The notes beneath the pieces are model-generated. The model worked only from the letters and a program-made list of their open reading frames with translations. It was not told where the DNA came from and did not search any database. A program made the translations under genes and the position numbers. 64,000 nt of DNA, taken from positions 1 through 64,000 of the forward strand of contig CBFGJG010000003.1 in the NCBI GenBank assembly GCA_965649055.1, written 5' to 3'. Numbering within the stretch: the first letter of the stretch is position 1; each line of letters opens with the position of its first letter. Positions 4,994 to 63,732 of this stretch are shown here, piece by piece. This stretch comes from a candidate division WOR-3 bacterium (GTDB lineage: Bacteria; Hydrothermota; UBA3072; B12-G15).

Positions 4994-5410
4994 TTAGAAA
5001 CGCAGTCCTATTACACCGCCACCGTCAATGAAGAAATCCATTATAACATATACCGTAGGACCTGTTTCTATAAAAAACTGGTATTTATCAAAGTCAAGTT
5101 TTAAACCAATCCTCATTGTAGGTCCTGCAAGTAAAAAATCCCTGTACCAGGTACTCCAGATGCTAATGTTGCCTGAGATACCTGGTTTTAAATATAACTT
5201 TAAATTCCTCATTTCAGGTGTTAAATTCCCAAAATCAGCAAGTTCGAATTCATATCCACCAAAGGCACCAATATATCCCCAATGGTAAGAAAATCCAACC
5301 TGAAAGTCAATAGCATTTTTTCCTGAAGGCATATAAAATGCTACACCAGTAGGTTCTCCTAAAACCAATCCTAATCTCGCGGCACTAAGTAAAAATAGCA
5401 TTGGAAACAT
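4994..5410 (-). CDS. Small outer-membrane beta-barrel-like protein (DUF3996-like)
   Basis: LGLVLGEPTG motif, alternating amphipathic strands, C-terminal GLRF; AGGAGG SD. Confidence 0.6.
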   Translation of the reverse strand: MFPMLFLLSAARLGLVLGEPTGVAFYMPSGKNAIDFQVGFSYHWGYIGAFGGYEFELADFGNLTPEMRNLKLYLKPGISGNISIWSTWYRDFLLAGPTMRIGLKLDFDKYQFFIETGPTVYVIMDFFIDGGGVIGLRF

Positions 5411-5428
5411 ACAACCTCCTTTTTAAAA

Positions 5429-5496
5429 ATCATACAAAAAAATTTTAAAAAAATCAAGAAATTTTTCTTGAAAAAATTTTTTTTTTATATTATAGT
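5429..5496. promoter_or_regulatory. Back-to-back sigma70 promoters
   Basis: Minus: TTGATT(5457-5452)-17-TATGAT; plus: TTGAAA(5468-5473)-17-TATAGT(5491-5496), 9 nt before ATG 5506. Confidence 0.6.
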
Positions 5497-5505
5497 AAAA
5501 AAACT

Positions 5506-5937
5506 ATGGACGATAAATTTGAACCTAAAATAGTGACATTCTTGTGTAACTGGTGTAGTTATGCAGGTGCTGACCTTGCTGGCGTTTCAAGACTCCAGTA
5601 TCCAACAAATCCAAGGGTTATAAGAGTTCCATGTTCAGGAAGAATAAATCCTTTCTTTATTCTTAAAGCACTTTATGAAGGGGCTGATGGTGTATGGGTT
5701 TCCGGATGCCATCCAATGGATTGTCATTATCAGGATGGTAATTTCTACGCAAGAAGAAGATTTTTTGTAATTCAAAGTCTTTTGAATTTTGTTGGTATCG
5801 AGAAAGAAAGGGTGAATTTTTCATGGGTTAGTGCTTCGGAAGCAAGCAAATTTGCAGAGACAGCAAAGGTTGTTACAGAAAGGGTAAAAAAAGTTGGACC
5901 ATTAAAAAAGTTTGTAAAGGAGAAAGAAATTGATTGA
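5506..5937 (+). CDS. flxD: MvhD/FlxD-type [2Fe-2S] subunit
   Basis: [35 protein letters not shown]. Confidence 0.9.
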
Positions 5938-6805
5938 TAAGATAAAAGAAATAGCAAGAGAACTAATAAGAAACAAAAAGGTTGACGTGATTATCGGTTT
6001 TGAAAAAGGAACTATTCCTTTTAAATCAAGGCCTGTTTTTATAGAGAAAGAAGAAGATATTGAAAAATTAGTATTTGATAGGTTCTGTGAGAATAATCTT
6101 GCAGCATATATCAGGAGGTATCCTGATAAAAAGATTGGTATAATTGCTAAAGGTTGCGATTCAAGGGCAATTGTTCAATTAATTATAGAGAAACAGGTAA
6201 AAAGAGAAAATCTTATTATTATCGGTGTTGTTTGTGATGGTATATATGATAGGAAGAAGATAATTGAAGATGGGAAAAAGATAGAAGAAATAAATGATGA
6301 CTATCTGTATATAAACTGTAAAACCTGTCAATATCCAGAACCCGTTATATATGATTATATAGCTGGTGAAAAAAATAGGAAAAGGGAAAGAAATTATGAT
6401 GATATCGAAAAGATAGAAAAAATGAGCGATGAAGAGCGATGGGAATTCTTTAAATCTGAATTCGCAAAATGCATAAGATGCTATGCTTGCAGGGAAGCTT
6501 GTCCTATGTGTTATTGTGAATTCTGTTTTGTTGATATTAATCAACCGAGATGGTTGGAAGGTGGGGGTGATGTCTCTGAAAAGGGATTCTGGAATATTGG
6601 GAGAGTGTATCATTTATCAGGAAGATGCGTGGAATGCGGTGCTTGTGAAAGGGCATGCCCTATGGATATAAGCATCTTCACACTCCTTAGGAAAATAAAC
6701 AAAGATATTTATAATGAGTTTGGGCATGAAGCAGGGTTAAAAATAGATGATAAACCATTCCTTGATCAGTATAAATTTGAAGACAAACAGGAATTCATAT
6801 TATGA
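5930..6805 (+). CDS. flxC: FlxC-like 4Fe-4S protein
   Basis: [32 protein letters not shown]; operon position. Confidence 0.82.
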
Positions 6806-7752
6806 AAAGAATAAAGAAAGAAAAATTCTTTGACGAACTATTTAAACTTAATAGAAAAGTGATTGCTCCTAAAGGTGAACAATTTTCAACAGTGAAAAAT
6901 AAAGATGAAATAATAACAAAAGGACTTTTAACGAGGATTTCACCGAAGTCTTTTTATTTCCCGTTTGAGGAGAAACTTTTTATTTGGAAAAATCAGGATA
7001 TTAAAGTAGTTGAAGATGATGAAAGGTACATTCTTTTTGGATTGAGGCCCTGTGAGGCAAAAGCATACAAAGCACTTGATAGAACATTCTATAATGAAAT
7101 CCCAGACCCTTATTATATAAGAAGAAGAAACAATACTGCAATCATATCTATTGCTTGTAATGAGCCTTTACCAACCTGTTTCTGCACATCATTGGGTGGT
7201 AGCCCTTTTGATAAAGAAGGTTCTGACATTCTTTTAATTGAAAAAGGAGAATTTTATTATACTGATGGTTATAATTTAGATTTAGGTTTTTCCTTTGAAG
7301 AAACAGACGAAAAGATAGATGATTTAAGAGAAAATGCAATCTCAAAGATTAAGAAATACGATTTTGAGAAGATAAAAGAAAAACTCGATAAGATATGGGA
7401 TACTGATTTCTTTTATAAAATTACCCAGAGGTGTCTAACATGTGGTGCGTGCACATTTCTGTGCCCTACATGTTACTGTTTTGATATTGAAGATAAGGAA
7501 AGGAAAGATGGTGGAAAAAGGGTTAGAATTTGGGATGCATGCACATTCAAGATATACACACAGGAGGCATCTGGGCATAATCCAAGATTGGATGAGTCTA
7601 AAAGAATGAGACAGAGGATTATGCATAAATTTTCATATTATCCTGAACTTTACAATATTTTTGGATGTGTTGGTTGTGGAAGATGTATAACATATTGTCC
7701 TGTAAATTTTGATATTAGAGAAGTTTTGTTTGAAGCAATGGAGAGAGAATGA
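6802..7752 (+). CDS. flxB: FlxB/AsrA-like 4Fe-4S dicluster protein
   Basis: GLRPCE, CFCTS, CLTCGACTFLCPTCYCF, CVGCGRCITYCP. Confidence 0.85.
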   Translation: MKRIKKEKFFDELFKLNRKVIAPKGEQFSTVKNKDEIITKGLLTRISPKSFYFPFEEKLFIWKNQDIKVVEDDERYILFGLRPCEAKAYKALDRTFYNEIPDPYYIRRRNNTAIISIACNEPLPTCFCTSLGGSPFDKEGSDILLIEKGEFYYTDGYNLDLGFSFEETDEKIDDLRENAISKIKKYDFEKIKEKLDKIWDTDFFYKITQRCLTCGACTFLCPTCYCFDIEDKERKDGGKRVRIWDACTFKIYTQEASGHNPRLDESKRMRQRIMHKFSYYPELYNIFGCVGCGRCITYCPVNFDIREVLFEAMERE

Positions 7753-8561: not shown

Positions 8562-8573
8562 ATCGGAGGATAA

Positions 8574-12340: not shown

Positions 12341-12341
12341 A

Positions 12342-13217: not shown

Positions 13218-13271
13218 AAATTAAGAAATGATATTTTTAAAATTAAAAAATGTAAAAAAAGGAGATTTATT

Positions 13272-16999: not shown

Positions 17000-17004
17000 A
17001 TTTT

Positions 17005-17030: not shown

Positions 17031-17057
17031 TTATAATTAATAAAAAACGGAGGTCCA

Positions 17058-17708
17058 ATGGCTTTAATTAAAATAATTTTTGAACCTTTTAAAGCTTTCG
17101 GGCATATAAAAGAAAAGGATGACTGGTGGATTCCTTATCTTGTATTTTCTATAATTTTGATTATCTCTCAAATTGTATCATTCCCGATTGTTATGAAAAT
17201 AATGAGCGAAACAATGGGAAATGATATGCAGCCACCACAGGGGAACTTCTCACTTTTCAGGATAGTTGGGCTTATTTCTATACCGGTTGTAACAATAATA
17301 ACATTTCTTTCATTAAGTCTATTAGTTTATTTTTTCACTTTCCTTTTCGGTAAGAATCTGCCTTTCATAAAAGGATTAGACCTTATATCTTACATATCAA
17401 TCGTTAATTCTATAAAGACTGTTATTGGAACCATTCTGATAATAATAAGAAGAAATGCTATAAGTTCGTTTGCTGATATGAGGCTAAAGTCAGGGCTTGA
17501 CCTATTTTTTCATTCTGATAACAGGAAATTAAATTTACTTATTTCTGAAATAGATATATTTAATGTCTGGTTTTATATTCTTTTAGCATTGGGTATCTCT
17601 TATCTTACAGGTTTGGATAAGAAGAAGAGCGGGATAATATCGTTTATGGTATTTATTTTCTCTTTAGGTATTAAATTTTTAACAGCGGGAAGGGGAAGAT
17701 GGTTCTAA
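17058..17708 (+). CDS. Yip1-family membrane protein (YknW-like)
   Basis: IIFEPFKAF..WWIP, IDIFNVW..LGIS; upstream of MacAB-type genes. Confidence 0.8.
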   Translation: MALIKIIFEPFKAFGHIKEKDDWWIPYLVFSIILIISQIVSFPIVMKIMSETMGNDMQPPQGNFSLFRIVGLISIPVVTIITFLSLSLLVYFFTFLFGKNLPFIKGLDLISYISIVNSIKTVIGTILIIIRRNAISSFADMRLKSGLDLFFHSDNRKLNLLISEIDIFNVWFYILLALGISYLTGLDKKKSGIISFMVFIFSLGIKFLTAGRGRWF

Positions 17709-18898
17709 TATTTTTTTCTATAACATTAACACTCGAAGAAGCAATAGAGCGTATGTTAAAGGTTTCAGAATCTTCTATGATACTTAATTATAAAATGAGG
17801 GTTGAACAGAAGGTTAATTCTTACAACTGGTCTTCATTGCTACCTTCGATTGAATCTAATTTATCATATTCTAAGATGTATCCAACAAAGAATGAAAGTT
17901 ATAGTATAGGTCTTTCAGGTTCTCAAAATCTATCAATATATAATTTTCTTCAGGGTGTAGAGGCATACTATAACAACAATGAATCCGAATTCAATTATTA
18001 TTATAACTTGAATGAACTGATCTATAACACAATAACTTTGTATCTAAATTGTTACACAGCTGAGAAACTACTTGAAGTTCGGAAAAAGGCCGTTGAAAGG
18101 TCTGAATACTACAAATCAAAGGTTGATGAGATGTTTAAACTCGGTTCAGCATCAAGGGCAGACCTTTTAAAGGCAGAGGTGAGTAATTTACAGGCACAGC
18201 TTGAATACATAAAGGCTGAGAAAACTCAAAAAGAGCTTATTTCACAATTTAAGAGCCTGCTTGATATCAATGAAGATGTAGAACTTTCTTTACCAACACC
18301 TGATATTTTTATAGATTCTTTGAATGTTTTTAAAGATAAGGTCCTGAAAGATAATTTTGAGCTAATAGCAATGAGGAATAGTATTGCATCTATGAGATTA
18401 AAACTTGCTGAGAATATTACACAATATCTTCCTTCAATTTACCTTCGGGGAAATTATGGTTATTCCGGTAGCGAATTCCCTGATAGTAAAGAAGAGTGGG
18501 ATTTAAAAGATTCATATAGTATTGGATTTGGTCTTTCAATGCCTATTTTTGCTGGATTTAAAAGGATTAACAATACAATAGTCCAGAAGATGCAACTTGA
18601 TATTGAAGTTTTGAATTTGAAGAAAAAGGAGAAAGATATATTATTAGAAATAGAGAATTCCTATAATAACTATTTAGAATCAAGAAAGATGCTTGAGATA
18701 TCAGAGAAGAATGTGCTTGTAGCTACTGAGAGTATGGAGGCAACAAGATTAAGGTTTGAGATGGGTGAGGCAAGTATAATAGAACTTCTTTCAAGTGAGG
18801 AAGACCTATTGAATGCACATTACAATCTTGAATTAGCAATGAAGGAATATCTTCTTTCAATATACAAGATAAAAAAGATAGAAGGGAGGATAATGTGA
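17699..18898 (+). CDS. TolC-family outer membrane channel
   Basis: LTLEEAI, LPSI, GSASRADLLKAEV, LSMPIFAGF, GEASIIELL. Confidence 0.88.
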   Translation: MVLIFFSITLTLEEAIERMLKVSESSMILNYKMRVEQKVNSYNWSSLLPSIESNLSYSKMYPTKNESYSIGLSGSQNLSIYNFLQGVEAYYNNNESEFNYYYNLNELIYNTITLYLNCYTAEKLLEVRKKAVERSEYYKSKVDEMFKLGSASRADLLKAEVSNLQAQLEYIKAEKTQKELISQFKSLLDINEDVELSLPTPDIFIDSLNVFKDKVLKDNFELIAMRNSIASMRLKLAENITQYLPSIYLRGNYGYSGSEFPDSKEEWDLKDSYSIGFGLSMPIFAGFKRINNTIVQKMQLDIEVLNLKKKEKDILLEIENSYNNYLESRKMLEISEKNVLVATESMEATRLRFEMGEASIIELLSSEEDLLNAHYNLELAMKEYLLSIYKIKKIEGRIM

Positions 18899-25354: not shown

Positions 25355-25824
25355 CTATTCAATATACCCTAAATTCATAATGAAGTTAAAACCGAAATAG
25401 GGAAATTCTGGATTTAGATTTAATTCAATTTCCGGTCCTATACCTATATAATAAAAATTGAACGAGAAAGAAGCTATCAAAGGAAAACCTATTAAGAAGC
25501 TTCTTCTTCGTTAGTTATCTGATTGAAAATCGGGATTATATTAAGACCAAAAAGAATCGAGCTCATAAAATGTTTACTTTTCTGTGCATAACCTTTTAAA
25601 AATGATAAGGAGAAAATTTTTATATCAATCGAAAAATCATAAGGAATTAAAACAGATGTTAGTTCCATTGCAAGCAAACCATTCCTGTCAAGATATGATA
25701 GTCCAATAGATATAGATGGGAGAACATAAGATTTATTGTATAATCTTATTCCACCTAATTTCCCCTGTGACCATAAAAAGTAGTCATTATTATTTTCTTG
25801 TAAAGCAAACAGAATTAATATCAT
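25355..25824 (-). pseudogene. Frameshifted putative outer-membrane beta-barrel gene
   Basis: ORF stops at 25492; a shifted frame continues FLIGFPLIASFSFNFYYIGIGPEIELNLNPEFPYFGFNFIMNLGYIE* to TAG at 25355. Confidence 0.6.
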
Positions 25825-28479: not shown

Positions 28480-28500
28480 TACCTCCATATTTAATTTTTT

Positions 28501-29343
28501 TTAAGTTCCTTTTTTAATTTTAATCTTTAACCCTATAATATGTGTAGGCTCAAAATATGAACCCGTAATTGTATAATACAATGAAATTTGGGAAAAATCA
28601 AGTCCAATTCCGAATGAAATTTTTTTCAATTGTGAATAACCGGCCCTTATTGAGATAATGTCTCTTATTGTTATTTCAGAACCAAATGAGAAAAAATTCT
28701 TATAATCGTTTAAAATATAAGAGATCTCAGCGAAACCATTATAACCTTCAAATTTATAAGGTAGTGATGTTGCAATTATTGTAGTCTGCGGTATTTTGTC
28801 TACTGTCTTTCCAAACCATGATATCTCAGTGCCCATAATGTCTTTTATTATCATTGAAATCCTTAATTTTTTTTCAAAGGTTAAACCGATGTCGTATCCA
28901 AATCCTGTTCCATGAAAATCAACTATTTCCTGCTCATAGTTCTTAATATTAAATCCTATATTCACTAATTTCATCTTCGTTGCCAAAGAGAATGTCAGAA
29001 CCCTTTCATTAACGCTAAAATAATCGATAGTTTCAGGGATAATGGTGTCTTCAATATCAGGGTTTAGTGGCATTTCACCTGATGTAAAATAATTTATACC
29101 AAAGGCAAGATATAAGCCATAGGCATTAAATCCAGTAGTAAGATTATAAAGATGAAAATTTTGAATAAGGTTTGTCCAGTCAATATAAAGGGAAGGGCTC
29201 TTGACACATATATTTGCTGGATTCCACCATATTGATGATATATCTTCATATGTGAAATAACTTGAACAGGAAATTCCTCTTGCACCTGCACCGGGAAATA
29301 GATAATCGAAAGGAATACTGAAACTCAATAAAATCAATATCAT
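28501..29343 (-). CDS. PorV/PorQ-like outer-membrane beta-barrel
   Basis: GAGARG..SIWWNPA N-terminal motif, GYDIG, ISIRAGY, ISFGIG. Confidence 0.72.
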   Translation of the reverse strand: MILILLSFSIPFDYLFPGAGARGISCSSYFTYEDISSIWWNPANICVKSPSLYIDWTNLIQNFHLYNLTTGFNAYGLYLAFGINYFTSGEMPLNPDIEDTIIPETIDYFSVNERVLTFSLATKMKLVNIGFNIKNYEQEIVDFHGTGFGYDIGLTFEKKLRISMIIKDIMGTEISWFGKTVDKIPQTTIIATSLPYKFEGYNGFAEISYILNDYKNFFSFGSEITIRDIISIRAGYSQLKKISFGIGLDFSQISLYYTITGSYFEPTHIIGLKIKIKKGT

Positions 29344-32300: not shown

Positions 32301-33473
32301 ATCCGTTTCGATAACCGGATTAACAATTTTATATCCGTCTATTCTCATTATATTTATTCTGTTTGACTGAAAATTATTAATTGTCACCTTAAAATTACTC
32401 TTTTCGCTCTTAAACTTCAAAATTTTCCCGTCTGATATGAATTTCCTTTTATAAAAAATTCTCAAATCTTTAAGATATATGAAAGATTGTGATTTAATAT
32501 TTATCTTTTTAATCTTCACATTGGTTGTGCATTGAATCTCTTGAAACGATTGTCCTTGAATATTAAGATTTTTTATGAATAAATCATTAACATATAAGTT
32601 TATATTCTGACTCAATAAAGAATTGTTATATAATTTTATCCTGATTATCCCGGAGTTATCATACCAATTTATTGTATCAAATAAGAATGTAAAAAAAGTA
32701 TCCTGTTCGTAAAACCAGCATCCGGAACTTCTTGAAAAGATTTTTTCCTTATCGATGCATATAGAATCTTGGAAGAAATTCAAAACTTCATCGGATTCTT
32801 CTGTATTAATATGGATATAATGTTTTCCTTCACCTATCTTTAGCCAGTAATAGTCTAAAGTATCGAAATCCGATTTGTAATCTTCAGCATAAAAAATCAA
32901 ATAATCATTATTATTGAATATATTATCTCCGTCAATATCGTATACATCAACAGGGACTGTTTTATCTTTATGTTTTAATGATATCTCACTTATTGGTGGT
33001 GAGAAGTTAATATTGTTTTTTAACAACATTCTGTGTGTTAATTTATAAATACCTGAAGAATCAACAGAGATTCTTATTCCATCTTTTAATTTTATACTAA
33101 CTGAATTTCTTCTATTATTGCTGGAATTAAGTTGGTTCAGGACGATTTCATCATAAAATCTATTCTGTTTTAAGCTTAAACAACCATTTTTTTTAAAATT
33201 AAAGTTAATTAAAATAACATCGTAATTTTTTATTTTTGTTGTATCAATCTCAATAATTAAAACCTTTCTTTTCCTGAAATCAAATGTCCCAATTATCCTT
33301 AATAAATCATTGCTTAACTTTTTTTCTCCGTTAAATAATTCATAATTAAATCCATACTCATCGGGAATAGAAATAATAGTTCTGTTTGAGATATCATTAT
33401 TTATAAATATCAGTGAGATTGATTTATCTGAATAATCTATTAATTTGAAAACCGAAAAAATTAAGAAAATCAT
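29340..33473 (-). CDS. C25 (gingipain/PorU-like) cysteine peptidase with CARDB-like and C-terminal FlgD/CTD-like domains
   Basis: GIYKLT, YLIFYAE, IKDFLRY, VGRIP, NFHGHGG (His), FSCVNG (Cys), LIGDP, INELNENNN, NYPNP..NGVYLY. Confidence 0.88.
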   Translation of the reverse strand: MIFLIFSVFKLIDYSDKSISLIFINNDISNRTIISIPDEYGFNYELFNGEKKLSNDLLRIIGTFDFRKRKVLIIEIDTTKIKNYDVILINFNFKKNGCLSLKQNRFYDEIVLNQLNSSNNRRNSVSIKLKDGIRISVDSSGIYKLTHRMLLKNNINFSPPISEISLKHKDKTVPVDVYDIDGDNIFNNNDYLIFYAEDYKSDFDTLDYYWLKIGEGKHYIHINTEESDEVLNFFQDSICIDKEKIFSRSSGCWFYEQDTFFTFLFDTINWYDNSGIIRIKLYNNSLLSQNINLYVNDLFIKNLNIQGQSFQEIQCTTNVKIKKINIKSQSFIYLKDLRIFYKRKFISDGKILKFKSEKSNFKVTINNFQSNRINIMRIDGYKIVNPVIETDKECYSVTFSDTTNGKANYIVYLTGTERIPKDIRYFNIEDKMNSFNGSDAVVITHPIFYDYALNYKNYYESYDSISVSIFTTDEIYNCFNYGEKSPFAIKDFLRYCFELDNPPYYLIIMGKGTYDPKNIYKNNSDLVPVIMKNVLGGYYSSDFEYSKICGNDEFPDIVVGRIPAITRTEMAGYIDKIINGSNSDEPKENRLFFGADYALQNSDVISEQIIKSIIPSGYDITRVYSREGTSVWEEVIRALSYGQTIFNFHGHGGEEDLGAGRYFRIYDIPRLTNYGKLTFMLAFSCVNGIMDDPQLRSVSEYSVMFPGVGMIGSVAPSGLTYFSDNIHTDKFLLNGIFRKDLRRLGDIIFYYKFLFPDSYNSICYHLIGDPLFKLKIAKDTLKFSNLYKNDTLYIRCENSMTGRFHFKVIDSLNIYEYSFNKTGYSKDTSFYIELLSENTRIISLLKNNLYSIAGEDNVFKKDIFESIIYYPEILCLNDTINIKAKLKIQPDSIFCVFGYDGILNNKIFMNDSSGTYYCRIPIIKEGLNLNFRIELFDSLNFNRSRIFSEYIIKRSDLKFLTEPEIFCDNKTLLLRLNVINSGEKKADSTVLSIYKFKDDDYYWIYDTIISDIKPLVKEEVLIPIEEFVNDTFKDINFKIFIDSYNWINELNENNNVIYYIKKKNFYKINHLDTNIISDRFWEITILPETFKKDGYFFVFEDEYEPPLKQEDFKPGSFDNFNKVFKIIYYDTIQKPFFLKIFPDSSNGSIYIRKKLKWINLSGDSVWVKDTGFYTYGFTSDNTKPIVKILKDTLYSKDGNIKINLTAEDDNGIDIWIRKPYFMINQKEIILEVNETRDLNIMNLNLESSLNDGFYNAKFFAYDVHGNMISKDIFINIQTPFLITFLSNYPNPARDLTKFLVELTKKPDSATLEIYQPSGNIVCKKVFYDLKEGKNIIEWHLRDDNGNYIPNGVYLYVVRAKLGIFETKEKRKMAVLKR

Positions 33474-34789
33474 CTTTTAATATGGATTATTTTTCTTTTT
33501 TCAATTCCATCTTTTTTATTTAGAATTAGAATGTAAATTCCCTGTGGATAATTTACAAATTCAATATCAAGCCATCCATTTTGAATTTCTTCCTCTTTTA
33601 TTTTTCTACCGTCAACACCTATAAGTGTATATTTTTTTGCATCAACCTGGATTTCTAATTTTCTTTCAACTATATGACTTTCTGAAACAAAAAATTTCTT
33701 TTTGCCGTTGTCGTAAAACTTGTAAAAAATCTTTTTATCGGGACTGCCCAAAATATATCCGTTCCAGAAAACAAAAATGTTCCCTTCAGAATCCTTTTTT
33801 ATCAATGGATTTGAACAAAGATATGAAGATTCATTAAGTTTTATCGGTTCATTTATATTGTCATCAAAATAGAATATATCACCATTTTCTGACCAGACGA
33901 AACTCCTGTATTCGCTAATATCAAGGTCGATTTCTGTAAGACTATTTGAAATATGTATTGTTTCTTTATCCTTCCAGGAATTTTCATATTCCCTATAAAT
34001 AATGTGAATCTTACCGTTCCTTAATTCATTCCAGATCACTCCTATTTTACCGGAATGAAAATCAGAAACAGGGTTAAATGAATTTACCATTGTATCTGAT
34101 ATTATAATTGAAGAACCTTCATTAAAATTTTTACATTTGATAACTATTTTCCCATTCTTAACTTCTTCGAATATTAAAAAAGGTGAATTATTATATAATG
34201 CTATGGAAGGGAAACCCGCATATATTTCAGAGTTAGAGACGATTAAATCGCTGGACCAGATACCTCTTTGTAAATACTTGTACAATATTTCTGATAGTCC
34301 ATTTCTTGTGTCCTGCCAGACAATATGTATTACATTATTCCTTAAAAGAACTGATGGATTTATAGACCAATTTCCATCATTTTCGGTTACATTTTCGATA
34401 CCGCTGAAAATACCGCCAGAAATATTATGGTAATATTTTCTTAAAAAAATCTCGTTCTGGAAATTCATATGTTGATAGGATATCCTTCTATCATCCCAGA
34501 TAATGTATATACAACTATCAGTAAAGAGAAGATTAGAATATCCTGCCCATAGAGAATAGACACTTCCAGCCCTTGATACATTCTTAAAGTAATCTATGTT
34601 ACAGTTTTTATTAACCCTTGCAAAGTAAACTTCAAGATAAGGGCTTGTATAACTTGAAAGAAAACTTATATACACATTACCGTTATTATCTGTATCGAGA
34701 GAATGAACAAATGATGGCGAGAGTATATTAACCTTATCACCTATATTTAATAATTTCTCTTGTGACCAGAAAGAAATAATCAGAATCAT
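33470..34789 (-). CDS. Secreted protein with repeated beta-rich motifs and T9SS-CTD-like tail
   Basis: Repeats IYIIWDDRR / IHIVWQDTRNG / IGVIWNE; tail DGRKI..QGIYIL..KRKII. Confidence 0.7.
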   Translation of the reverse strand: MILIISFWSQEKLLNIGDKVNILSPSFVHSLDTDNNGNVYISFLSSYTSPYLEVYFARVNKNCNIDYFKNVSRAGSVYSLWAGYSNLLFTDSCIYIIWDDRRISYQHMNFQNEIFLRKYYHNISGGIFSGIENVTENDGNWSINPSVLLRNNVIHIVWQDTRNGLSEILYKYLQRGIWSSDLIVSNSEIYAGFPSIALYNNSPFLIFEEVKNGKIVIKCKNFNEGSSIIISDTMVNSFNPVSDFHSGKIGVIWNELRNGKIHIIYREYENSWKDKETIHISNSLTEIDLDISEYRSFVWSENGDIFYFDDNINEPIKLNESSYLCSNPLIKKDSEGNIFVFWNGYILGSPDKKIFYKFYDNGKKKFFVSESHIVERKLEIQVDAKKYTLIGVDGRKIKEEEIQNGWLDIEFVNYPQGIYILILNKKDGIEKRKIIHIKR

Positions 34790-36033
34790 TTTAATCTAAT
34801 TATCTTCTTCAAAATCCCGTTTTTTTTTAAAAAATAAACACCATTCTTAGAAATAGAATTTTTTCTACCTGTAATATCCAAAATTAAACTATCATTTTCA
34901 AAAAGCATGTTATTCCCTGAACCAACGAGATTCCCTTCTTTGTCTATCAACCTGTAAGATATTATATTACCATCAAACCTTATAATTTCGCTTTTTTTTA
35001 CCTCCATAAGACATACAATTGTATCTTCTTTTGATCCTTCAAGAAGAATTTCTTTATCTATTGTAATCTTATCTTTAGAAACAATCTCTAAATAACCATC
35101 TAAGTTCGAAATAATTTTTTTATTATCTATTATAAGGTTTATACCATTATTCTTATCAACGAACATTTTTCTTTGATTGAGAAACCATTTCCACATTATG
35201 CAGAAGGAATTAAAATCATTATAGTCCATTAATCCGTCAGGTAGGCAATAAATATCCGGGAGCCTACCAGAATAAGGACCTGTTTCAAAATATGTATCAT
35301 TGTTTAGAAAAGCATTCCTGAATATTACAAAATCAAGAGAATTAACCTGGAGGTCAAGATCGAAATCACCTAAAGGAGAAATTATATAATTTACATATAT
35401 ATCATCTAAAGGGCTTCCATCTTCAAAATTGTTCCAGTTCCCGTCTATTTTATTTCCAAAGATATCCTTTACTGAATCACCATTAAATTTAAATACGAGG
35501 TTGTCATTAGAACGTGGAATAGGATAGAGGTAAACATAGATAGTATCTTTTTTTATTTTTATCTCTTTCTTTGAATAAAAGATTGTATCCTGATAATTGT
35601 AGGAGAAAATTTCAGTTCCACTATTAAAACTTGAAGAATCTATGTGAGAATTGAAGACAAATTTGAAAAGCCTTCCATCCGTTATTCCCTGGACAGGGGT
35701 TATGCTAACAAGTTGTGGTGGAGCAGGTGTGGGAACTTTTATAGTATCCTTAAAGATTACCCCGTTCGTTAGTTTTGAAAAAAAAGTATAGTAATAATAG
35801 TATCCAGGAGAGAGTGAAACTGAATCAATAAACATATATGGTTTTAATGGCTCAAGGGGAATTCTTAGAAAACACCACCATTCATTTGGTGAGTTTGCAA
35901 ATCTATCATATCTTCTTACGATAAACAATGATTCAATGGAACTTGAATCGGGGGATACAAATGTTATAAGGTTGAATGATTTGTATTTTGTTATTGAAAG
36001 ATTATAGAGAAATGATATCTCAATAAATAACAA
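34786..36033 (-). CDS. Secreted protein with Ig-like domain, dockerin/EF-hand-like module and reduced CTD-like tail
   Basis: GDFDLDLQVNSLDF and DGLMDYNDF repeats; DITGRK..NGVYF..KKIIRLK; probable TTG start 36033 after GGAGG. Confidence 0.65.
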   Translation of the reverse strand: MLFIEISFLYNLSITKYKSFNLITFVSPDSSSIESLFIVRRYDRFANSPNEWWCFLRIPLEPLKPYMFIDSVSLSPGYYYYYTFFSKLTNGVIFKDTIKVPTPAPPQLVSITPVQGITDGRLFKFVFNSHIDSSSFNSGTEIFSYNYQDTIFYSKKEIKIKKDTIYVYLYPIPRSNDNLVFKFNGDSVKDIFGNKIDGNWNNFEDGSPLDDIYVNYIISPLGDFDLDLQVNSLDFVIFRNAFLNNDTYFETGPYSGRLPDIYCLPDGLMDYNDFNSFCIMWKWFLNQRKMFVDKNNGINLIIDNKKIISNLDGYLEIVSKDKITIDKEILLEGSKEDTIVCLMEVKKSEIIRFDGNIISYRLIDKEGNLVGSGNNMLFENDSLILDITGRKNSISKNGVYFLKKNGILKKIIRLK

Positions 36034-36739
36034 TCGTTCCTCCATTTAGTGTATCTACAGGTATTTCAAATCCAAGTGAATCAAATATCTTTCCTTCCTT
36101 TATTTTAAATTCATATTTTCCTGTTTCATTTGAAGAAAATTTGAAATTCCCGATTATGAAATCCTGCTCAGGAAATCCATTCATGTTTGTCCTATAAATC
36201 TCAAGTGAACATTGATATTCTTTGACTAAAACAATCGGTAGTGAATTCCCTGAAAAAACAGAGCTGTCTATCCTGTATTCGATTAAATTAATCTCTTTAT
36301 CCCATGCCAATTTAACATATTCAAAACTATGTGTTTTTAGATTTTCACCTTTTAAGAGGATGTTAATATCCTGATATAAGCGCAATGAGTCAAAAATAGG
36401 GGAGATTGAGAACCCATTTTTTAAACCATCGATACAGAAGATAATTTCAGGATAATTTTCTTCTTTTTCACCAAGGATATTTTTACCCCTTACCCAGAAA
36501 TTATGCCACCCATCGTCGAGAATAAATGATACCGATTCAGAGATTGTCCAGTCTGATAATTTACCGTCAATTGAATACTGATAATATACCGTGCCATCAC
36601 CTTTCCAGACAATCTTTACAATGTTTGTGTTTATAATAGAACAATTTTCAGGACCTTTAATTATATTTGTCTTTGGAGATATTAGTTTCTCATTATAACA
36701 TCCTATCAGGAAAATGATTAGAATCAATGGTTTCTTCAT
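36020..36739 (-). CDS. Lipoprotein with Y_Y_Y-like Ig domain and cohesin-like C-terminal domain
   Basis: Lipobox LIGC; YQYSIDG..W..GWHNFWVRG; C-terminal KLAWD..IGNFKF..NGGTIVI. Confidence 0.6.
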   Translation of the reverse strand: MKKPLILIIFLIGCYNEKLISPKTNIIKGPENCSIINTNIVKIVWKGDGTVYYQYSIDGKLSDWTISESVSFILDDGWHNFWVRGKNILGEKEENYPEIIFCIDGLKNGFSISPIFDSLRLYQDINILLKGENLKTHSFEYVKLAWDKEINLIEYRIDSSVFSGNSLPIVLVKEYQCSLEIYRTNMNGFPEQDFIIGNFKFSSNETGKYEFKIKEGKIFDSLGFEIPVDTLNGGTIVIY

Positions 36740-37602: not shown

Positions 37603-37608
37603 TTTAAT

Positions 37609-37673
37609 ATTATAAAAAATAATAAAAAATTTTCAATATAAATCTTGACATTTTTTTTATTTTTGATTATTTT
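37609..37673. promoter_or_regulatory. Divergent sigma70 promoters, both SD-less
   Basis: Minus: TTGAAA(37636-37631)-16-TATAAT-6-ATG; plus: TTGACA(37645-37650)-17-TATTTT-9-ATG. Confidence 0.62.
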
Positions 37674-37682
37674 TTAATTAAT

Positions 37683-38063
37683 ATGATTATTTTATTTATA
37701 GCACAGTTAGGAATGATACAGTCTAATATAAGTATAAACATCCAGGTTTGGGGTGAGGTTAGGAATCCAGGTATATTCAATGTCCCACCAAACATTAATG
37801 TTATTGAGGCAATATCATTTGCAGGTGGTCCACTTAATACATCTGATCTTTCTAATGTAAAGATAGTTAGTTTGAACGGGAACATAAAGTTCATAAATAT
37901 TTCTTCTTATCTAAAAGGAGGAAAGGTCGACATTCCAATGATCTCACCCGGAGATATAGTTATCGTTCCAAGATCTGCCCTTTCAAATCTCGTCGAGTTT
38001 GTTAGATTTATGAGTATCGTAATAGGTGCTGCAGGAATTATCTTTTCCATAGTGGGGAGATAA
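37683..38063 (+). CDS. SLBB-domain protein (mini Wza-like)
   Basis: VWGEVRNPG, AISFAGGP, PGDIVIVP, C-terminal helix; upstream of wzc. Confidence 0.82.
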   Translation: MIILFIAQLGMIQSNISINIQVWGEVRNPGIFNVPPNINVIEAISFAGGPLNTSDLSNVKIVSLNGNIKFINISSYLKGGKVDIPMISPGDIVIVPRSALSNLVEFVRFMSIVIGAAGIIFSIVGR

Positions 38064-49309: not shown

Positions 49310-49311
49310 CT

Positions 49312-50378: not shown

Positions 50379-50383
50379 GAGGG

Positions 50384-52879: not shown

Positions 52880-53408
52880 AGTTAGATTTTCCGGTTCCGG
52901 TGGTCAGGGTATTATCCTTGCAGGTTTGATATTTGCAGAGGCAGCAGGGATTGATGAGAAGAAAAACGTTGTTCAGACACAACTTTATGGTGCTGCAACA
53001 AGGGGCGAGATAAGTAAGACAGAGGTTATAATCTCTGATGAAAAGATTAATTATATAAAGGTGAGGAAAGCAGACCTTCTACTTGCACTTAATCAAGATT
53101 CTTTCAACGCATACAAGGATAATGTTAAGGAAAACGGAATAATTTTAATTGACAGTTTTTATGTGAAAGATTATAATAAGGATGATAAAAGGATAATTGC
53201 TTTACCATTGAGTGAAACATCCATTAAAATAACTAAAAGAGAGATTGCAACTAATATAGTTGCGTTAGGTGTTATTACTGTTATAAGTAAGATTATAAGT
53301 AAAGAAAGTATGAAAAATGCTGTTTTAAGAAGGATACCAAAAGGAACGGAGGAAATGAATATTGAAGCATTAAATGCGGGATTTTTACTCGGTGAAGGGA
53401 TAAAATGA
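52869..53408 (+). CDS. korC: 2-oxoacid:ferredoxin oxidoreductase gamma subunit
   Basis: GSGGQG, YGAATRG, NIVALG. Confidence 0.88.
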   Translation: MKYEVRFSGSGGQGIILAGLIFAEAAGIDEKKNVVQTQLYGAATRGEISKTEVIISDEKINYIKVRKADLLLALNQDSFNAYKDNVKENGIILIDSFYVKDYNKDDKRIIALPLSETSIKITKREIATNIVALGVITVISKIISKESMKNAVLRRIPKGTEEMNIEALNAGFLLGEGIK

Positions 53409-54298
53409 TATTGTTATTTGTATCAATAGAATTTGATAATTTCTACAGGGATTTTAAAAATATTATTGACTGGTTTAACAGAATTGGTTCACCTGTTGGT
53501 TTTGAGATGTTATACATTGATAAAGAACCTGTGATAAGTGGTTCTGGAGGAATTTATTTCTTCAGTCCTGAAAACTCAGGTTCATTAAATCCATCTTACC
53601 CTTTAAGTAAAGATAATTATAAGTTTATTTCAGTTTCTCACAGGACACACTATGCAGGTTCATTCTTTGATAAGATTACATATTTGAATGTGAAAGAAAA
53701 ATTTTATTTAGGTGTTATTTTAGAAGGTTTTTTCTCAAATCAAATGGAATTACACGACACAATCCCTGAGACTTCAGACGAATACTATAATGGATATGAC
53801 ATTTCTTTAAACATTAGTTCAGGTTATGAATTAAAAAATATGCAGTTAGGTTTAACTATTAAATATCTTTACGAGAAAATATTTATAGAAGATGTTTCAA
53901 CATACGGATTTGACATTGGAATTTCAAGGAATTTTGATTCAGGAAAATTTGGTTTTTCTCTGCTTAATCTTGGGCCAAAATACTACGGGAAATTAAAAAA
54001 CAGACTACCTATAACATGGAGGATAGGTGGTTCCTATGAAAAAAGTTTTAGTGAAATAAATTCAGGTTTAGGCATTGACATTGTAAAGCCATTACATAAT
54101 GTAACAGAATTTCATACTGGTCTAATATTTGAATATAGTTTTATGAGGATATTCTTAGGTAAGAAGTTCAGGAACACACTTGAAGACTTTTCAACCGGAT
54201 TTGAATTCTCAATTAATAAATTTGTTTTTTCCTATTCTTTTTTAATACTGAAAAATTCAGGATTTTCGTCTAATATTAAAACACTCTGGAGATTTTAA
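53405..54298 (+). CDS. PorV/PorQ-like outer-membrane beta-barrel
   Basis: [37 protein letters not shown]-terminal WRF. Confidence 0.68.
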
Positions 54299-56281: not shown

Positions 56282-56362
56282 AGATTTATTTTTATTAATA
56301 TGTTGAAAATCAATAATGGATAATCGGGAACAAAAATTTTTTATAAATAATAGGAGGTAAAT

Positions 56363-58298: not shown

Positions 58299-58303
58299 TT
58301 AAA

Positions 58304-58762: not shown

Positions 58763-58764
58763 AT

Positions 58765-61700
58765 ATGAAAAAATTTATTTTAATTTTGTTACTGTTTTCT
58801 TTGTCAAGTTATACCCAGACAATGCCCTGTGATGCACCACCAACAATTATGAGGGCTGTAAAACCAAATCTTATTTTTCTCCTTGATATTTCACTCTCTA
58901 TGTATGCAAGGGCATACTGGTTTGGTAGTGGTGACCCAAGAACTAATTATAATCCAAATATGCGTTATTATGGTTATTTTCACCCTGATTCAATTTACGT
59001 TTATAGTGACCCGCAATGGGTTACAACAGGTCAAGGTGCAAATGGTGATTACCGAGTTACAACAACTAACTTTGATTTTAAGAATAAGAGAATACTTGGG
59101 AATATATTAAATTGGGCAACTATGTCAAGATGGGACATTATGAAGAAGGTTCTTGTTGGTGGTGAAGGGAATCCAACTTCAGACTATGTGAATGAAAAAC
59201 TGCAAAGCAGGGGTGGTTATACTTCTGGAGATGATGGTTGGCCTACTCCTTTGATTACCCTTGTTTCTGATTCGACAGTTCAATACAGATTTGACAGGAC
59301 ATCACAGGGAGCAACTTCAATAGTTGTTGATTCTTTTTATAATGGAAAATGGAAAAAGAATTTTACGGCATCGCTGACAAAAATAGATGTTTCAACTCTT
59401 TCTACTGATTACAGGATAGGAATCCTTGCTAAAATAGGTGACCAAGACCTTGATAGAAAATGGGACGGTGGGAATCAGATACCGAGATTTGCAGTTATGG
59501 TATATACTGAAGATTCTAAAGAAAATAAAATTCTAAAATTAATTAAAGATAATGGTTTCTCCGCTAATGATTCAGGGCAGAATGCTGCCGAATTAATTAC
59601 AGGTATAAAAGAACAACCGATTGGATATGCTACAAATGTTGGTGATGCCATCCTTCAGGCAATACATTATTTTGCTTCCGAAAAAGACCATTTTGGTAAC
59701 TACAATAAATTCCCCGATGACCCTTATCTTAGAAAGGTAATAGGAAATATATATGACACATTATGGTGTGCACATTCTTTCGTCGTTCTCCTTGGAGATG
59801 GACAGGCAAATAGGGATCAAATTGTTACAACAACCGATTATTCAGGAACCCACAGAATTCCTGTTGGCTATAGAGGGGACATACAGTCCTTATGTAGTTA
59901 TAATAATAATCTAACAGGATATGATACGGATAGTTGGGATGATGTGAATTCAAAGAAAGACTGTTCAGACGATGGTTATTATACAGAAACAGACCATAGG
60001 GCAGATGATTATGCATATTATGCACATGTTACAGATTTGAGGGTGGATGGTGGAACAAGAACGCCTTCTAACCTAAAAGGTGAACAAAAATTAACATTTT
60101 ATACAGTTTTTTGTTTTGGAAAAGGTGCAAATCTTTTTAAGAGTATAGCAAAATGGGGTGGATTCAATGATAGAAATTTGGACAAACTACCACAGAGAGA
60201 TGAATATGATGAAAACAACGATGGGGTTCCAGATAAATATTATGAAGCAGAAACGGGTGATTCCCTTGAATCATCCATAAGGAAGATTATTTACGAGGTT
60301 ATGGCAACTGTTTCTTCCGGAACTGCTACTGCAATAGTTGCAACAGGGACAAGGGGAGAAGGTGTTGGGACTTATGCAATGTATTATCCAAGAAAATTCT
60401 ATGGGCAGACTGCAATTGATTGGATAGGTATGCTTCATGGTGTCTGGGTAGATCCATTTGGAAATCTTAGAGAAGAAACAGAAGGTAATCTACAGATGCA
60501 TCTTAAGAATGATTTTGTTATAAGGATGGAATACGATACTGCTTCGGGAGAAACAAAGGTTTTAAGATACAGAGATATAAATGGTGATAACAAAAATTTA
60601 CAATTTGTAGATCAGGTAAATTATGATAATTTAAAAACAATATTCGACCTTGGAAAATATCTATTAGATGTTTCATCTAATATAAGAAATATCTGGACTT
60701 TTATTAACAATACTGAAATAGAATTTAAAGCTGCTAACAAAAATATTATAAAGCCATATTTAGATGTTTCTACTGATGGTGAGGCTGATACATTGATAAG
60801 ATATATAAGGGGGGAAAATGACTTTGGTTTTAGAAATAGGAAGCTTCCTGATAATAGACTTTACAAGTTGGGTGATATAATGTTCTCTTCACCACTTGTT
60901 GTAGGGCCGCCTATGGAAAGGTATGACCTGCTTTATGGTGATACAAGTTATATGTCTTATTTCAGAAAATATAATTTTGATGAAAAAAGAAGGTCTGTGG
61001 TTTATGCAGGTGCAAATGATGGAATGTTACACTGTGTAAATATTGGTCTTTACTATACTGATTCAGGTGTTGTTGCAGGACATCTCGACCCTGCAGGCCA
61101 TACCCCAGGTAAAGAACTCTGGGCTTATATACCATTTAACCTTTTACCACACCTAAAATGGTTAAAAGAGAAAGAATACTGTCATGTTTATTATGTTGAT
61201 TTAAAACCATATCCAACAGATGCTAAGATTTTCACAGCAGATAACACACATATAAATGGATGGGGAACAGTGCTTATTTCTGGCTTCAGAATGGGTGGAA
61301 CCAAATACACACTCCCAGGTGGAACAATACTTTCTTCGGGTTATGCATGTATTGATGTCACAAACCCATTAAACCCTGATGTCCTATGGGAATGGAAGAT
61401 ACCTGAATACACATATTCTACATCCTATCCAAATGTAATTAAAGTTCAAAATAACTGGTATATGATAGTTGGAACAGGACCAACACAATTCAATGGTTAT
61501 AGTTCAATAAATGCAAAACTTTATGTTCTTAATCTTTCTGATGGTTCTGTAGTTAAGACATTTACTTTATCAGAACCCCGTTCAGCAATAGGTGATATTA
61601 TTTCTGTTGACCTTGACCTTGATTATAATGTTGATCTTGTTTATTTTGGAACTTATTATGATGCAGTTGGGAATATTGCACCGGCAGATTTTAGGGGAAA

Positions 61701-62421
61701 TCTTTATAGATTAAACACAAGAGAATCAGCAGATCCAAACAATTGGACACTTACTAAATTATTTGGACCAACAAGGCCAATTACTGCTGCACCTGCTGCA
61801 ACACTTGATGAACAGGGTAAACTCTGGATTTACTTTGGCACTGGTAAATATTTTTCAAGCGATGATGTTTCAGATAAAACTACAGAATATTTTTATGGTA
61901 TTAAAGACACTGATACATCTTCAACTGTTTCAATTTCTGAACTTCAAAATGTTACAAATGTTAAAGTTTATGGACCTGATTCTGTTACTGGATTATCGGG
62001 TGTTAAAAATTTCAATGAATTGGAAACGTTCTTAAGAGGGAAGAAAGGATGGTACAGGGTCCTGTCATTTAGTGGTGAAAAATCATTCACAAGACCTTAC
62101 GTAATTGGTGGAACACTTGTATACACGACTTTCACCCCAACCGGTGATATATGTGAGGCGACCGGCAAGGGAAGACTTTATGCATTATATTATTACACTG
62201 GAACTGCCTATAAAAACCCTATTCTTCCCAAAAACCCTATTACAGGTGAACATGAGGTTTTAGCCGACTTAGGGCCAGGTCTTCCAGCTGAGCCAAGTTT
62301 GTATGTTGGTCCTACAGATGAAAAGATATATATACAGATTAGTGGTGCTGTAAAACAGATAGAAAATATAAACCTTGTAATGGACCCAAGGGGTGGTCTT
62401 ATAATGTGGAAAAGGAGGTAA
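58765..62421 (+). CDS. pilY1: PilY1/PilC type IV pilus adhesin with vWA-like domain
   Basis: LDISLSM MIDAS-like, KLGDIMFSSP, GANDGMLH, ELWAYIP, DLDLDYNVD Ca loop, YFGTGKY, KGWY. Confidence 0.92.
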   Translation: MKKFILILLLFSLSSYTQTMPCDAPPTIMRAVKPNLIFLLDISLSMYARAYWFGSGDPRTNYNPNMRYYGYFHPDSIYVYSDPQWVTTGQGANGDYRVTTTNFDFKNKRILGNILNWATMSRWDIMKKVLVGGEGNPTSDYVNEKLQSRGGYTSGDDGWPTPLITLVSDSTVQYRFDRTSQGATSIVVDSFYNGKWKKNFTASLTKIDVSTLSTDYRIGILAKIGDQDLDRKWDGGNQIPRFAVMVYTEDSKENKILKLIKDNGFSANDSGQNAAELITGIKEQPIGYATNVGDAILQAIHYFASEKDHFGNYNKFPDDPYLRKVIGNIYDTLWCAHSFVVLLGDGQANRDQIVTTTDYSGTHRIPVGYRGDIQSLCSYNNNLTGYDTDSWDDVNSKKDCSDDGYYTETDHRADDYAYYAHVTDLRVDGGTRTPSNLKGEQKLTFYTVFCFGKGANLFKSIAKWGGFNDRNLDKLPQRDEYDENNDGVPDKYYEAETGDSLESSIRKIIYEVMATVSSGTATAIVATGTRGEGVGTYAMYYPRKFYGQTAIDWIGMLHGVWVDPFGNLREETEGNLQMHLKNDFVIRMEYDTASGETKVLRYRDINGDNKNLQFVDQVNYDNLKTIFDLGKYLLDVSSNIRNIWTFINNTEIEFKAANKNIIKPYLDVSTDGEADTLIRYIRGENDFGFRNRKLPDNRLYKLGDIMFSSPLVVGPPMERYDLLYGDTSYMSYFRKYNFDEKRRSVVYAGANDGMLHCVNIGLYYTDSGVVAGHLDPAGHTPGKELWAYIPFNLLPHLKWLKEKEYCHVYYVDLKPYPTDAKIFTADNTHINGWGTVLISGFRMGGTKYTLPGGTILSSGYACIDVTNPLNPDVLWEWKIPEYTYSTSYPNVIKVQNNWYMIVGTGPTQFNGYSSINAKLYVLNLSDGSVVKTFTLSEPRSAIGDIISVDLDLDYNVDLVYFGTYYDAVGNIAPADFRGNLYRLNTRESADPNNWTLTKLFGPTRPITAAPAATLDEQGKLWIYFGTGKYFSSDDVSDKTTEYFYGIKDTDTSSTVSISELQNVTNVKVYGPDSVTGLSGVKNFNELETFLRGKKGWYRVLSFSGEKSFTRPYVIGGTLVYTTFTPTGDICEATGKGRLYALYYYTGTAYKNPILPKNPITGEHEVLADLGPGLPAEPSLYVGPTDEKIYIQISGAVKQIENINLVMDPRGGLIMWKRR

Positions 62422-62423
62422 TT

Positions 62424-62822
62424 ATGCAAATTTATGTGTTAATGTTTTTATTGTTATCAAAACCAAATATAAAATTACATTTAGATGATAAAGATGAAGG
62501 CTATCTTTATAGGGGTGGTGCATTTTGTGATAGTATTGTCAATAACATTATCTATCTAAGAGATTGTAAAGAGTTAATATTATCAGAAGATCTGGATATA
62601 ACCATAGGAAAAAATCCATATTTTTTTGTTGACACACTTGAAAATCCTGTTAATTTATTTACCTTGAAAATGCCCTGTGTTCTTTTAATAGAGATGATAT
62701 TGCCAAAATATTATCCTGAAGACAGTATAGAATTAATGCTTGAAAAGGCAAGAAGTATTCATCGGATTGTATATATAAAAGAAACAACTGAAGAAGAAAT
62801 ACAGAACTCTTATTGTAAGTGA
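62424..62822 (+). CDS. Hypothetical protein
   Basis: AGGAGG SD before ATG 62424; short hydrophobic N-terminus. Confidence 0.6.
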   Translation: MQIYVLMFLLLSKPNIKLHLDDKDEGYLYRGGAFCDSIVNNIIYLRDCKELILSEDLDITIGKNPYFFVDTLENPVNLFTLKMPCVLLIEMILPKYYPEDSIELMLEKARSIHRIVYIKETTEEEIQNSYCK

Positions 62823-62856
62823 AATGAAGATTTGAAAAATGGAGGTCGAAATAAAA

Positions 62857-63732
62857 ATGTTAATTTTATTGATAATATTATTATTTTTTTCCTGCAATAG
62901 GAAATCAGGTGAAAATGTAAAGAATTCTCCCCCTTCCATAGACAGGGCAGAGATAATTCCTTCAATGGTTTATAAAAACACGAAAGCACAGGTTCGCGTT
63001 TTTAGTAAAGATAATGACAAAGATAATATAACCTATAAATTCAAATGGTTCGTTAACGACGAAGAATATCTTGAAGAAAGTGAGATAGAACTTAAACTAC
63101 TTTCAAAAGGGGATAAGATTTATGTTGAAATAACACCTTTTGACGGAAAAGAATATGGAAAACCTTATAGAACGGCAGAAAAATATATAAGGAATTCAAA
63201 ACCTGTTATGATAAGCGCAAGGATAGAACCTGATACAATAACTTCCAATGTAAAGGAGATAAAGATTATAGGAAATGGAGAAGATATTGATGGTGATAAT
63301 CTGACTTATACCTGTGAATGGTTCTTAAATAACAAAAAACTCGATGAAACCTCAACTGTTTTAAAGGGAAATTTTAAAAAGAACGATGTTATAAATTTTA
63401 TTGTGCGTGCAAACGATGGAGAAGAGACATCTGAAAATTTTGTCAGCGCAGTCATTTATGTAAAGAATGCACCACCTGCATTTCAGATGAAAGAAGATTC
63501 CATAAAGATTTCATCTAATAGTTTCAATTTTAAGGTAAATGCAATTGATCATGATGGAGATAAGATTAAATATTCTATTGTTTCTTCAAATTTGCCTTTG
63601 ACCATTGATGAGAATACGGGTGTTGTTTCAGGACAGATACCCGAAGGGTTTACGGGAATAACTATTCAGGTTAAGGCAGAGGATGGTGAAGGGGCATACA
63701 GTATAAAAAATATAAATTTAGGAATAAGATAA
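62857..63732 (+). CDS. Lipoprotein with tandem Ig/cadherin-like domains
   Basis: Lipobox FFSC; repeats NSPP/NSKP/NAPP..DxDxD.ITY..WF.N; LTIDENTGVVSG. Confidence 0.75.
   Translation: MLILLIILLFFSCNRKSGENVKNSPPSIDRAEIIPSMVYKNTKAQVRVFSKDNDKDNITYKFKWFVNDEEYLEESEIELKLLSKGDKIYVEITPFDGKEYGKPYRTAEKYIRNSKPVMISARIEPDTITSNVKEIKIIGNGEDIDGDNLTYTCEWFLNNKKLDETSTVLKGNFKKNDVINFIVRANDGEETSENFVSAVIYVKNAPPAFQMKEDSIKISSNSFNFKVNAIDHDGDKIKYSIVSSNLPLTIDENTGVVSGQIPEGFTGITIQVKAEDGEGAYSIKNINLGIR

Follow-up and report, generated by a model that had tools for sequence, protein, structure and literature searches.

A candidate division WOR-3 bacterium (GenBank assembly GCA_965649055.1; genome of 2.08 Mb, 93.8% complete) carries a second, minimal class of export signal, consisting of about seven uncharged and hydrophobic residues at the N-terminus. 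The class is common, constant in character across orthologues and nearly confined to proteins of the envelope, and it is used alongside Lys/Arg-led signals. It was first proposed in a sequence-only reading of positions 1 to 64,000 of contig CBFGJG010000003.1 (hereafter the window), which named eleven presumably exported proteins with such leaders and tentatively attributed them to a modified specificity of SecA, SecY or signal peptidase, or to a dedicated route. We examined the leaders in the whole genome and in orthologues from the phylum. The leaders are probably cleavable Sec/signal peptidase I signals of which only the hydrophobic core and a small residue at -1 are left, and which the ordinary machinery handles; cleavage itself, and its site with exceptions, we infer from sequence.

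Frequency, starts and carriers of the short leaders

The gene set consisted of 1886 genes from our own calling script, 1845 of them with a closed 5' frame. A start was assigned to the strict pattern if it had no Lys, Arg, Asp or Glu at positions 2-6, at least five hydrophobic residues among residues 2-7, and no full transmembrane helix. The strict pattern was found at 162 of 1845 starts (about 9%, or one in eleven), 157 of them non-lipoprotein, and a looser pattern at 214 starts. Compared to the internal Met residues, where the pattern occurred in 71 of 8848 cases, or in 18 of 7153 when proteins without transmembrane helices were considered, short uncharged starts were far above background. 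The commonest form was Met, five hydrophobic residues and Ser (Met-h5-Ser), within a range of about 6-12 residues, and the core was almost purely Ile, Leu and Phe. Among the 112 leaders with at least five hydrophobic residues after Met, the run including Met was six residues long in 75 and seven to nine in 37, and was followed by Ser, Ala or Gly in 89 (100 of 351 for internal runs). The residue was Ser in 70 of the 112 versus 34 of the 351, and since Ser is absent from the pattern definition, its excess is an independent signature. The remark that these leaders lack a clear AxA site was true, because the residue at -3 in the 66 Met-h5-[SAG] cases was Ile (29), Leu (22), Phe (12) or Val (3) and Ala in 0, but a motif does exist in the form of the Ser that ends the run. 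Residues 8-14 held 0.39 Lys/Arg per protein versus 1.13 in other genes, in line with a mature start that moves outward. A strong Shine-Dalgarno (SD) sequence preceded 57 of 186 short-leader genes versus 104 of 191 charged-signal genes, which would fit lower-flux clients that tolerate a weaker signal.

Longer upstream starts would give these proteins ordinary signals, and this objection was not upheld. The open frame upstream of the start had a median of 6 codons in 186 short-leader genes and likewise in 1326 others (p = 0.68). The first possible start was used in 129 of the 157 strict non-lipoprotein cases, and in 48 of those 129 no Lys or Arg was encoded anywhere upstream in frame, whatever the start codon. 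At most two open codons lay upstream in 34 of the 157, and a -10 box (TAnnnT) stood exactly 6 nucleotides before the ATG in 14, most with a TTGA-type -35, which is a signature of transcripts starting at the ATG. Overlap with the upstream stop (56/157) and a strong SD (50/157) are counts that are not independent of the calls, since both were inputs to start calling. At least one locking feature was present in 121 of the 157. A possible upstream start codon existed in 28, a few of which would add Lys or Arg, and out-of-frame ATGs leading into Lys/Arg were not commoner than elsewhere (23/157 versus 205/1326). For the window leaders, an in-frame stop was located 0-27 codons upstream and was TAA, TGA or TAG, so that no single recoded stop restores a longer signal. 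Recoded stops, upstream starts and out-of-frame starts were therefore rejected as the source of the short leaders, and the sequence evidence showed the called short starts to be true N-termini rather than miscalls.

The carriers include BamA, LptD, SurA, TolC, a secretin and PorU/PorV. Outside the window there were 150 strict cases, of which 115 were scanned for families over their first 420 residues; a Pfam family was assigned to 60, and 55 matched none. With locations assigned from general knowledge of the families, the 60 comprised 43 envelope or secreted proteins, 4 membrane proteins whose N-terminal domain lies outside, 4 TPR-only proteins, 5 first helices or miscalled starts, and 4 cytoplasmic proteins. 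Envelope families were LptD, OstA/LptA, two of SurA type, LolA-like, secretin, TolC, AmiC, EnvC-type, TonB receptor, macroglobulin, C25 and S8. In the control, 60 random other genes (of 100 drawn) were scanned at a stricter E cut-off, and 53 had a family, 0 of them a soluble envelope family. Two membranes are described for a cultured WOR-3 strain (PMC12285271), and BamA, LptD and SurA must work outside the cytoplasm. No later helix was found in 137 of the 157 strict non-lipoprotein cases. By eye, all 13 short Lys/Arg-led starts looked cytoplasmic.

Some carriers stood apart from the rest. A nitroreductase (L339:6167-6745, minus strand) and a second YidD-like protein (L329:1-375, minus strand) had the mini-leader before normally cytoplasmic domains, and are either exported variants or false positives. 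A 721-residue protein of the S49 (signal peptide peptidase) family also had a mini-leader, followed by a long unassigned N-terminal part (L313:1-1260, plus strand; contig C2:43863-46028). The 57 proteins with a type IX secretion system (T9SS) tail and a whole 5' end were divided into 25 short, 25 charged and 7 with neither, the last mostly broken or miscalled. One further T9SS-tail frame, on contig C72 (match at 3965-4132), had an ILSY-type repeat four times at its 5' end and no start codon before the hydrophobic stretch.

The class was not general for lipoproteins. Like lipoprotein signals, which have a shorter h-region, the mini-leaders are short, and a handful of lipoproteins lack Lys/Arg. 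Unlike them, most mini-leader proteins have no lipobox Cys (lacking in 157 of 162 strict cases). The 75 lipobox candidates, a heuristic list with some false members, kept Lys/Arg in 68 and had a median length of 15; in 66 of the 68 charged ones at least nine residues separated the last Lys/Arg from the Cys.

Orthologues across the phylum and the -1 register

BamA was present in all 201 phylum genomes, and we read 91 of its leaders from 34 families. The script labelled 50 as uncharged, 36 as charged and 5 as unplaced; after nine rows had been corrected by eye, 53 were uncharged, 36 charged and 2 ambiguous. The leader in this genome was uncharged and 7-8 residues long. On the BamA tree the short leaders formed three large clades with long ones nested within, with about five label changes; as a FastTree tree without a root, it does not separate gain of the short leader from loss, and its only four independent pairs of long and short leave pairs tests without power. 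Across the BamA loci, the pattern was found at the first start of long frames in 15 of 95, 14 of 137 and 20 of 218 cases in the three short clades versus 2 of 115 in long lineages, a tally that is biased in that BamA itself was counted.

The mini-leaders ended in register with the cleavage site of long orthologous signals. In long BamA orthologues, the Ala, Ser or Gly of the predicted cleavage site was located three residues before the first POTRA strand. In the 19 uncharged BamA leaders without an insertion, read by eye, the same -1 register was occupied by Ser, Ala or Gly in 14, Thr in 2, Asn in 2 and His in 1. TolC behaved likewise. All 21 whole N-termini of TolC orthologues from the same class were short and uncharged (three more loci were cut), the four orthologues from other families were all long, and the terminal small residue of the short ones fell in the -1 register of the long.

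Mechanism and competing explanations

In the reading we favour, the Ile/Leu/Phe core would engage SecA/SecYEG with the aid of hydrophobic patches in the still unfolded mature domain, described as mature-domain targeting signals (PMC5412566). The signal recognition particle (SRP) may help in this bacterium and would not be required across the phylum. With a charged N-terminus anchored in the cytoplasm, so short a leader would not reach across the membrane; the N-terminus would therefore have to be uncharged, letting the whole leader sink toward the periplasmic face. The single LepB would then bind all seven residues as an extended strand in the S7-S1 footprint of a published model (PMC2259416), whose seven non-prime subsites equal the modal leader length, and would cut with a large residue at -3 and Ser, Ala or Gly at -1. 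Lipoproteins, which must stay anchored for lipidation, would keep Lys/Arg and a longer core. If this reading is right, about seven residues is a natural lower limit for a cleavable bacterial export signal, and such a signal would serve some 9% of the proteome, with BamA, LptD and SurA among its users. This would bear on the role of the n-region, the obligation to form a hairpin, and the share of the mature domain in targeting. One phylum with a cultured member would offer paired long- and short-leader orthologues with and without SRP. Predictors built on tripartite signals probably overlook these proteins, and the secretomes of WOR-3, and perhaps of other uncultured phyla, may be undercounted.

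Comparison with known signals placed the mini-leader closest to the Sec/signal peptidase I type. Like the canonical signal, it lies at the N-terminus, is hydrophobic and varies in sequence while keeping its character; it is borne by periplasmic, outer-membrane and secreted proteins (43/60 versus 0/53 above), is followed by an early mature region poor in Lys/Arg, has a small residue at -1, and lines up with the h/c end of the long signals of orthologues. In the canonical signal a basic n-region is important for efficiency, an apolar core is essential and -3 is small (PMC9360617), and a eukaryotic review gives 7-15 residues for the hydrophobic core (PMC8584900). The mini-leader has no basic n-region (by definition of the class), its core spans about 5-8 residues, it lacks a polar c-region and a small -3, and it totals about seven residues. 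It therefore appears to work like a Sec/signal peptidase I signal yet fails three defining tripartite features. It has no Arg in residues 2-6 to form a Tat twin arginine, although TatC is present; prepilin motif matches (PF07963) were confined to the pilins at 55883-58298; and an uncleaved signal anchor is excluded by the pattern, which admits no full helix. A search of Creative Commons-licensed PubMed Central and bioRxiv texts, with subscription journals and supplements outside its scope, found no account of such leaders, and the term signal peptide was absent from the main text of the WOR-3 papers searched.

Several observations weighed against the favoured reading. The absence of Ala at -3 is contrary to the small -3 rule (PMC9360617). 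Of the 214 loosely defined leaders, 29 had no Ser, Ala or Gly between positions 6 and 14, and Asn, His, Tyr or Phe stood at the expected -1 in some orthologues of BamA and PorV; the cleavage site can thus be placed only to within about two residues, and some leaders may have none. The small residue at -1 was possibly inherited from a long ancestral signal. The net charge of residues 8-19 could not be distinguished from that of residues 31-42 in the same proteins (p = 0.84). A similar uncharged strand starts some cytoplasmic enzymes (GT2, Cas2 and others), which makes the tag alone insufficient for export. To these is added the dependence of the SD and overlap counts on the start calls.

A tentative alternative, with some chance of being right, is a head-first second mode of Sec, in which the neutral and probably formylated N-terminus passes through a SecY with a loosened plug. 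The seven residues would then be both a gate-opening patch and an exact LepB footprint, trimmed on the periplasmic side, and the absence of Lys/Arg would be the cue that sorts the tags from cytoplasmic enzymes whose first strand is Lys-led. Peptide deformylase was present in five of five genomes, so a formyl group, if retained, would need a cause other than loss of that gene. The SecY changes invoked are Val68 and Leu196. At plug position 68, Ser in E. coli, the 56 genomes of the short-leader group (which includes six short charged leaders) had Val in 53 and Ala in 3, never Ser or Thr; the 77 outgroup rows (mostly Myxococcota, Pseudomonadota and Bacteroidota) had Ser in 67, Thr in 9 and Ala in 1; and the long-leader genomes had Val in 16 of 26 and Val or Ala in 19. 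We take prl alleles to map to Ser68, an assumption that a literature search did not confirm. At position 196, the best-tracking of 426 columns, Leu occupied 54 of 56 short-leader rows, 7 of 26 long-leader rows and none of the 79 in the outgroup. Both positions are weak leads that, with four independent pairs, are not significant.

Rather unlikely, in our view, is that the leaders are uncleaved tags, which would be pulled through by Sec and stay on the mature protein or be trimmed by aminopeptidases. Such tags would account for the leaders without a small residue, the Asn, His, Tyr or Phe at -1 and the large -3; however, they leave unexplained the strong Ser bias over internal runs, the way the BamA and TolC leaders line up with long signals that are cleaved, and an excess of Ser-Gln, and the Lys-led signals of the same genome often read large-x-Ala/Ser too. 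Ser, Ala or Gly followed by Gln occurred at positions 7-14 in 20 of 214 leaders versus 2-8 in ten control windows. This recalls the Q-rule of Bacteroidetes (PMC5837995), but unlike there, Gln is in the minority here, following Met-h5-[SAG] in 4 of 66 cases. A type II glutaminyl cyclase homologue (contig C6:14679-15491; L335:1-810, minus strand) was itself preceded by a mini-leader, without a lipobox; its best PDB match was a bacterial glutamine cyclotransferase (E 2.5e-41), and type I glutaminyl cyclase was found in 0 of 5 genomes.

It is improbable that co-translational targeting by SRP makes the short leaders work, with SecA secondary. The genome has Ffh, FtsY and 4.5S RNA, the core consists almost entirely of Ile, Leu and Phe, and the M domain of Ffh was found in 18 of 19 class relatives and was unremarkable in the 11 WOR-3 rows compared. 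The BamA leader was uncharged in 33 of the 49 genomes that have the M domain and in 20 of the 40 in which it was not found, and SRP loss is thus neither needed nor sufficient for them. Loss of SRP as the cause was rejected for the same reason and because SRP is kept here. Among the genomes without the M domain was G030, 100% complete, in which SRP RNA and TatC were not found either. The groove of eukaryotic SRP54 accommodates about 16 residues, and short cores bind to it poorly (PMC8584900), and the independent-pairs test is without power here as well. As an observation in its own right, the M domain was found in 119 of the 201 phylum genomes and not in the other 82, with whole families lacking it at once.

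A dedicated route, or a strongly altered translocase such as a natural prl-like SecY, is highly improbable. The genome has ordinary genes for SecA, SecY, SecDF, YidC, one LepB, Ffh, FtsY, 4.5S RNA, TatC and deformylase, and by eye no unusual gene was found beside secA, lepB, yidC, secDF or ffh. The six pore-ring isoleucines of SecY are intact and the PrlA4 changes F286Y and I408N (PMC10883268) are absent. The dedicated route suggested from the window was therefore not supported. Modified specificity of SecA, SecY or signal peptidase is possible but weakly indicated, by SecY Val68 and Leu196, the former also common in long-leader genomes, and by LepB. The catalytic Ser and Lys of LepB are intact; in structural numbering, it carries Val at positions 86 and 144 and Asn at position 142, which line S1-S5 in the published model (PMC2259416). 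The residue denoted Ile86 was Val in 18 of 19 short versus 3 of 10 long rows, 15 of the 19 coming from one class. In SecA, no column separated the leader groups with a residue unlike that of E. coli, and groove residues showed no pattern by leader class. SecA (contig C16:14163-17249, L202) does have about 55 extra residues in the preprotein-binding domain, found in 30 of 30 WOR-3 rows, long and short alike, and presumably shared by Bacteroidota. A search with the insertion matched only six close relatives, and no solved SecA covers it. In E. coli prlA strains, proteins with weak or missing signals are exported via hydrophobic mature-domain patches (PMC12988166, PMC10883268, PMC5412566), which resembles the export proposed here; unlike those laboratory mutants, the present case is natural and proteome-wide, has a residual leader and lacks the PrlA4 changes.

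Barely credible is an artefact, with true starts upstream (through odd start codons, read-through, frameshift or assembly error) or proteins that stay cytoplasmic, for although 28 of 157 cases and 6 of the 21 short TolC orthologues have a possible upstream start, the start evidence above speaks against it, the trait recurs across the 34 families sampled, and BamA, LptD and SurA have no function in the cytoplasm, while a cultured member of the phylum is bounded by two membranes (PMC12285271).

The window leaders and neighbouring genes

Each of the eleven positions named in the window is a start codon (ten ATG, with TTG at 36033) followed by the residues quoted, and eight satisfied the strict pattern (17699, 25824, 29343, 33473, 34789, 37683, 53405 and 62857). 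The protein labels were borne out, that of 34789 by a weak T9SS tail and that of 5410 by barrel look-alikes; the proteins at 25824, 36033 and 62424 have no family, and their export is predicted only. The TolC-family outer membrane protein (PF02321; gene 17699-18898, plus strand) has a 7-residue leader at 17699..17719; its start overlaps the upstream gene, and the TAA reported at 17672, 8 codons upstream, was verified.

The PorV-PorU operon at 28501-36739 supplied several leaders on the minus strand, in a 2.1-Mb non-Bacteroidota genome with 69 T9SS sorting-tail matches. The PorV-family barrel (gene 28501-29343; NF033709, E 3e-17, below the curated cut-off) has a leader of 7-9 residues at 29317..29343, and four homologues begin alike. 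The PorU-like C25 protease with a T9SS tail (gene 29340-33473) has 7 residues at 33453..33473, its overlap-coupled start lying one codon past an in-frame stop. The leader of the T9SS-tail protein encoded at 33470-34789 (a TIGR04183 match below cut-off, E 4e-4) comprises 6-9 residues at 34763..34789 and starts two codons past a stop. The start at 36007..36033 is a weak example that fails the strict pattern, with a TTG start, Glu at position 5 and an in-frame ATG four codons upstream. A Lys-led lipoprotein signal of 13 residues plus Cys at 36698..36739 served as a control. Short contigs aligned over 28400-37700 listed no change at the cited starts, which carries little weight. Outside the operon, a 110-residue protein has a 7-residue leader at 25804..25824 (minus strand), its ATG directly following a TAA.

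The SLBB polysaccharide-export protein has a 7-residue leader followed by Gln at 37683..37703 (plus strand). A candidate sigma-70-type promoter at 37645..37673 (plus strand; 10 of 12 consensus matches) ends 9 nucleotides before this start and, if used, would leave no space for a longer signal. The region 37645-37683 is the window example of a leaderless-mRNA signature seen genome-wide: 132 of 450 SD-less, uncoupled genes had TAnnnT 6 nucleotides before the start (130 of them ATG), and 119 of those 132 had TTG in the -35 zone versus 84 of the 318 others.

A second PorV-family barrel (gene 53405-54298, plus strand; NF033709, E 6e-13, below the curated cut-off) has a 7-residue leader at 53405..53425, its overlap-coupled start three codons past a stop. 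The small outer-membrane barrel look-alike on the minus strand has 7-10 residues at 5381..5410, with the start at 5410 or 5401; it is 138 residues long, and its look-alikes 153-156. Ordinary Lys-led signals were found on DegP, PilY1 and the gene referred to as 143, as had been noted, and the 17-residue PilY1 signal at 58765..58815 (plus strand) was used as a second control. PilY1 belongs to an operon at 55883-62421 with a minor pilin and PilW. The protein of the pilus operon at 62424..62459 (plus strand) has an uncharged 12-residue leader and a strong SD 6 nucleotides upstream. At 62857..62895 (plus strand) an uncharged 12-residue leader is followed by a lipobox Cys, an exception among lipoproteins; an alternative SD-less ATG at 62839, six codons upstream, would add a Lys. 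Elsewhere in the window, a DNA methylase and an HpyAIV-family restriction enzyme (11405-13217) are located inside a cluster of heterodisulfide-reductase-like Fe-S genes (5506-14644).

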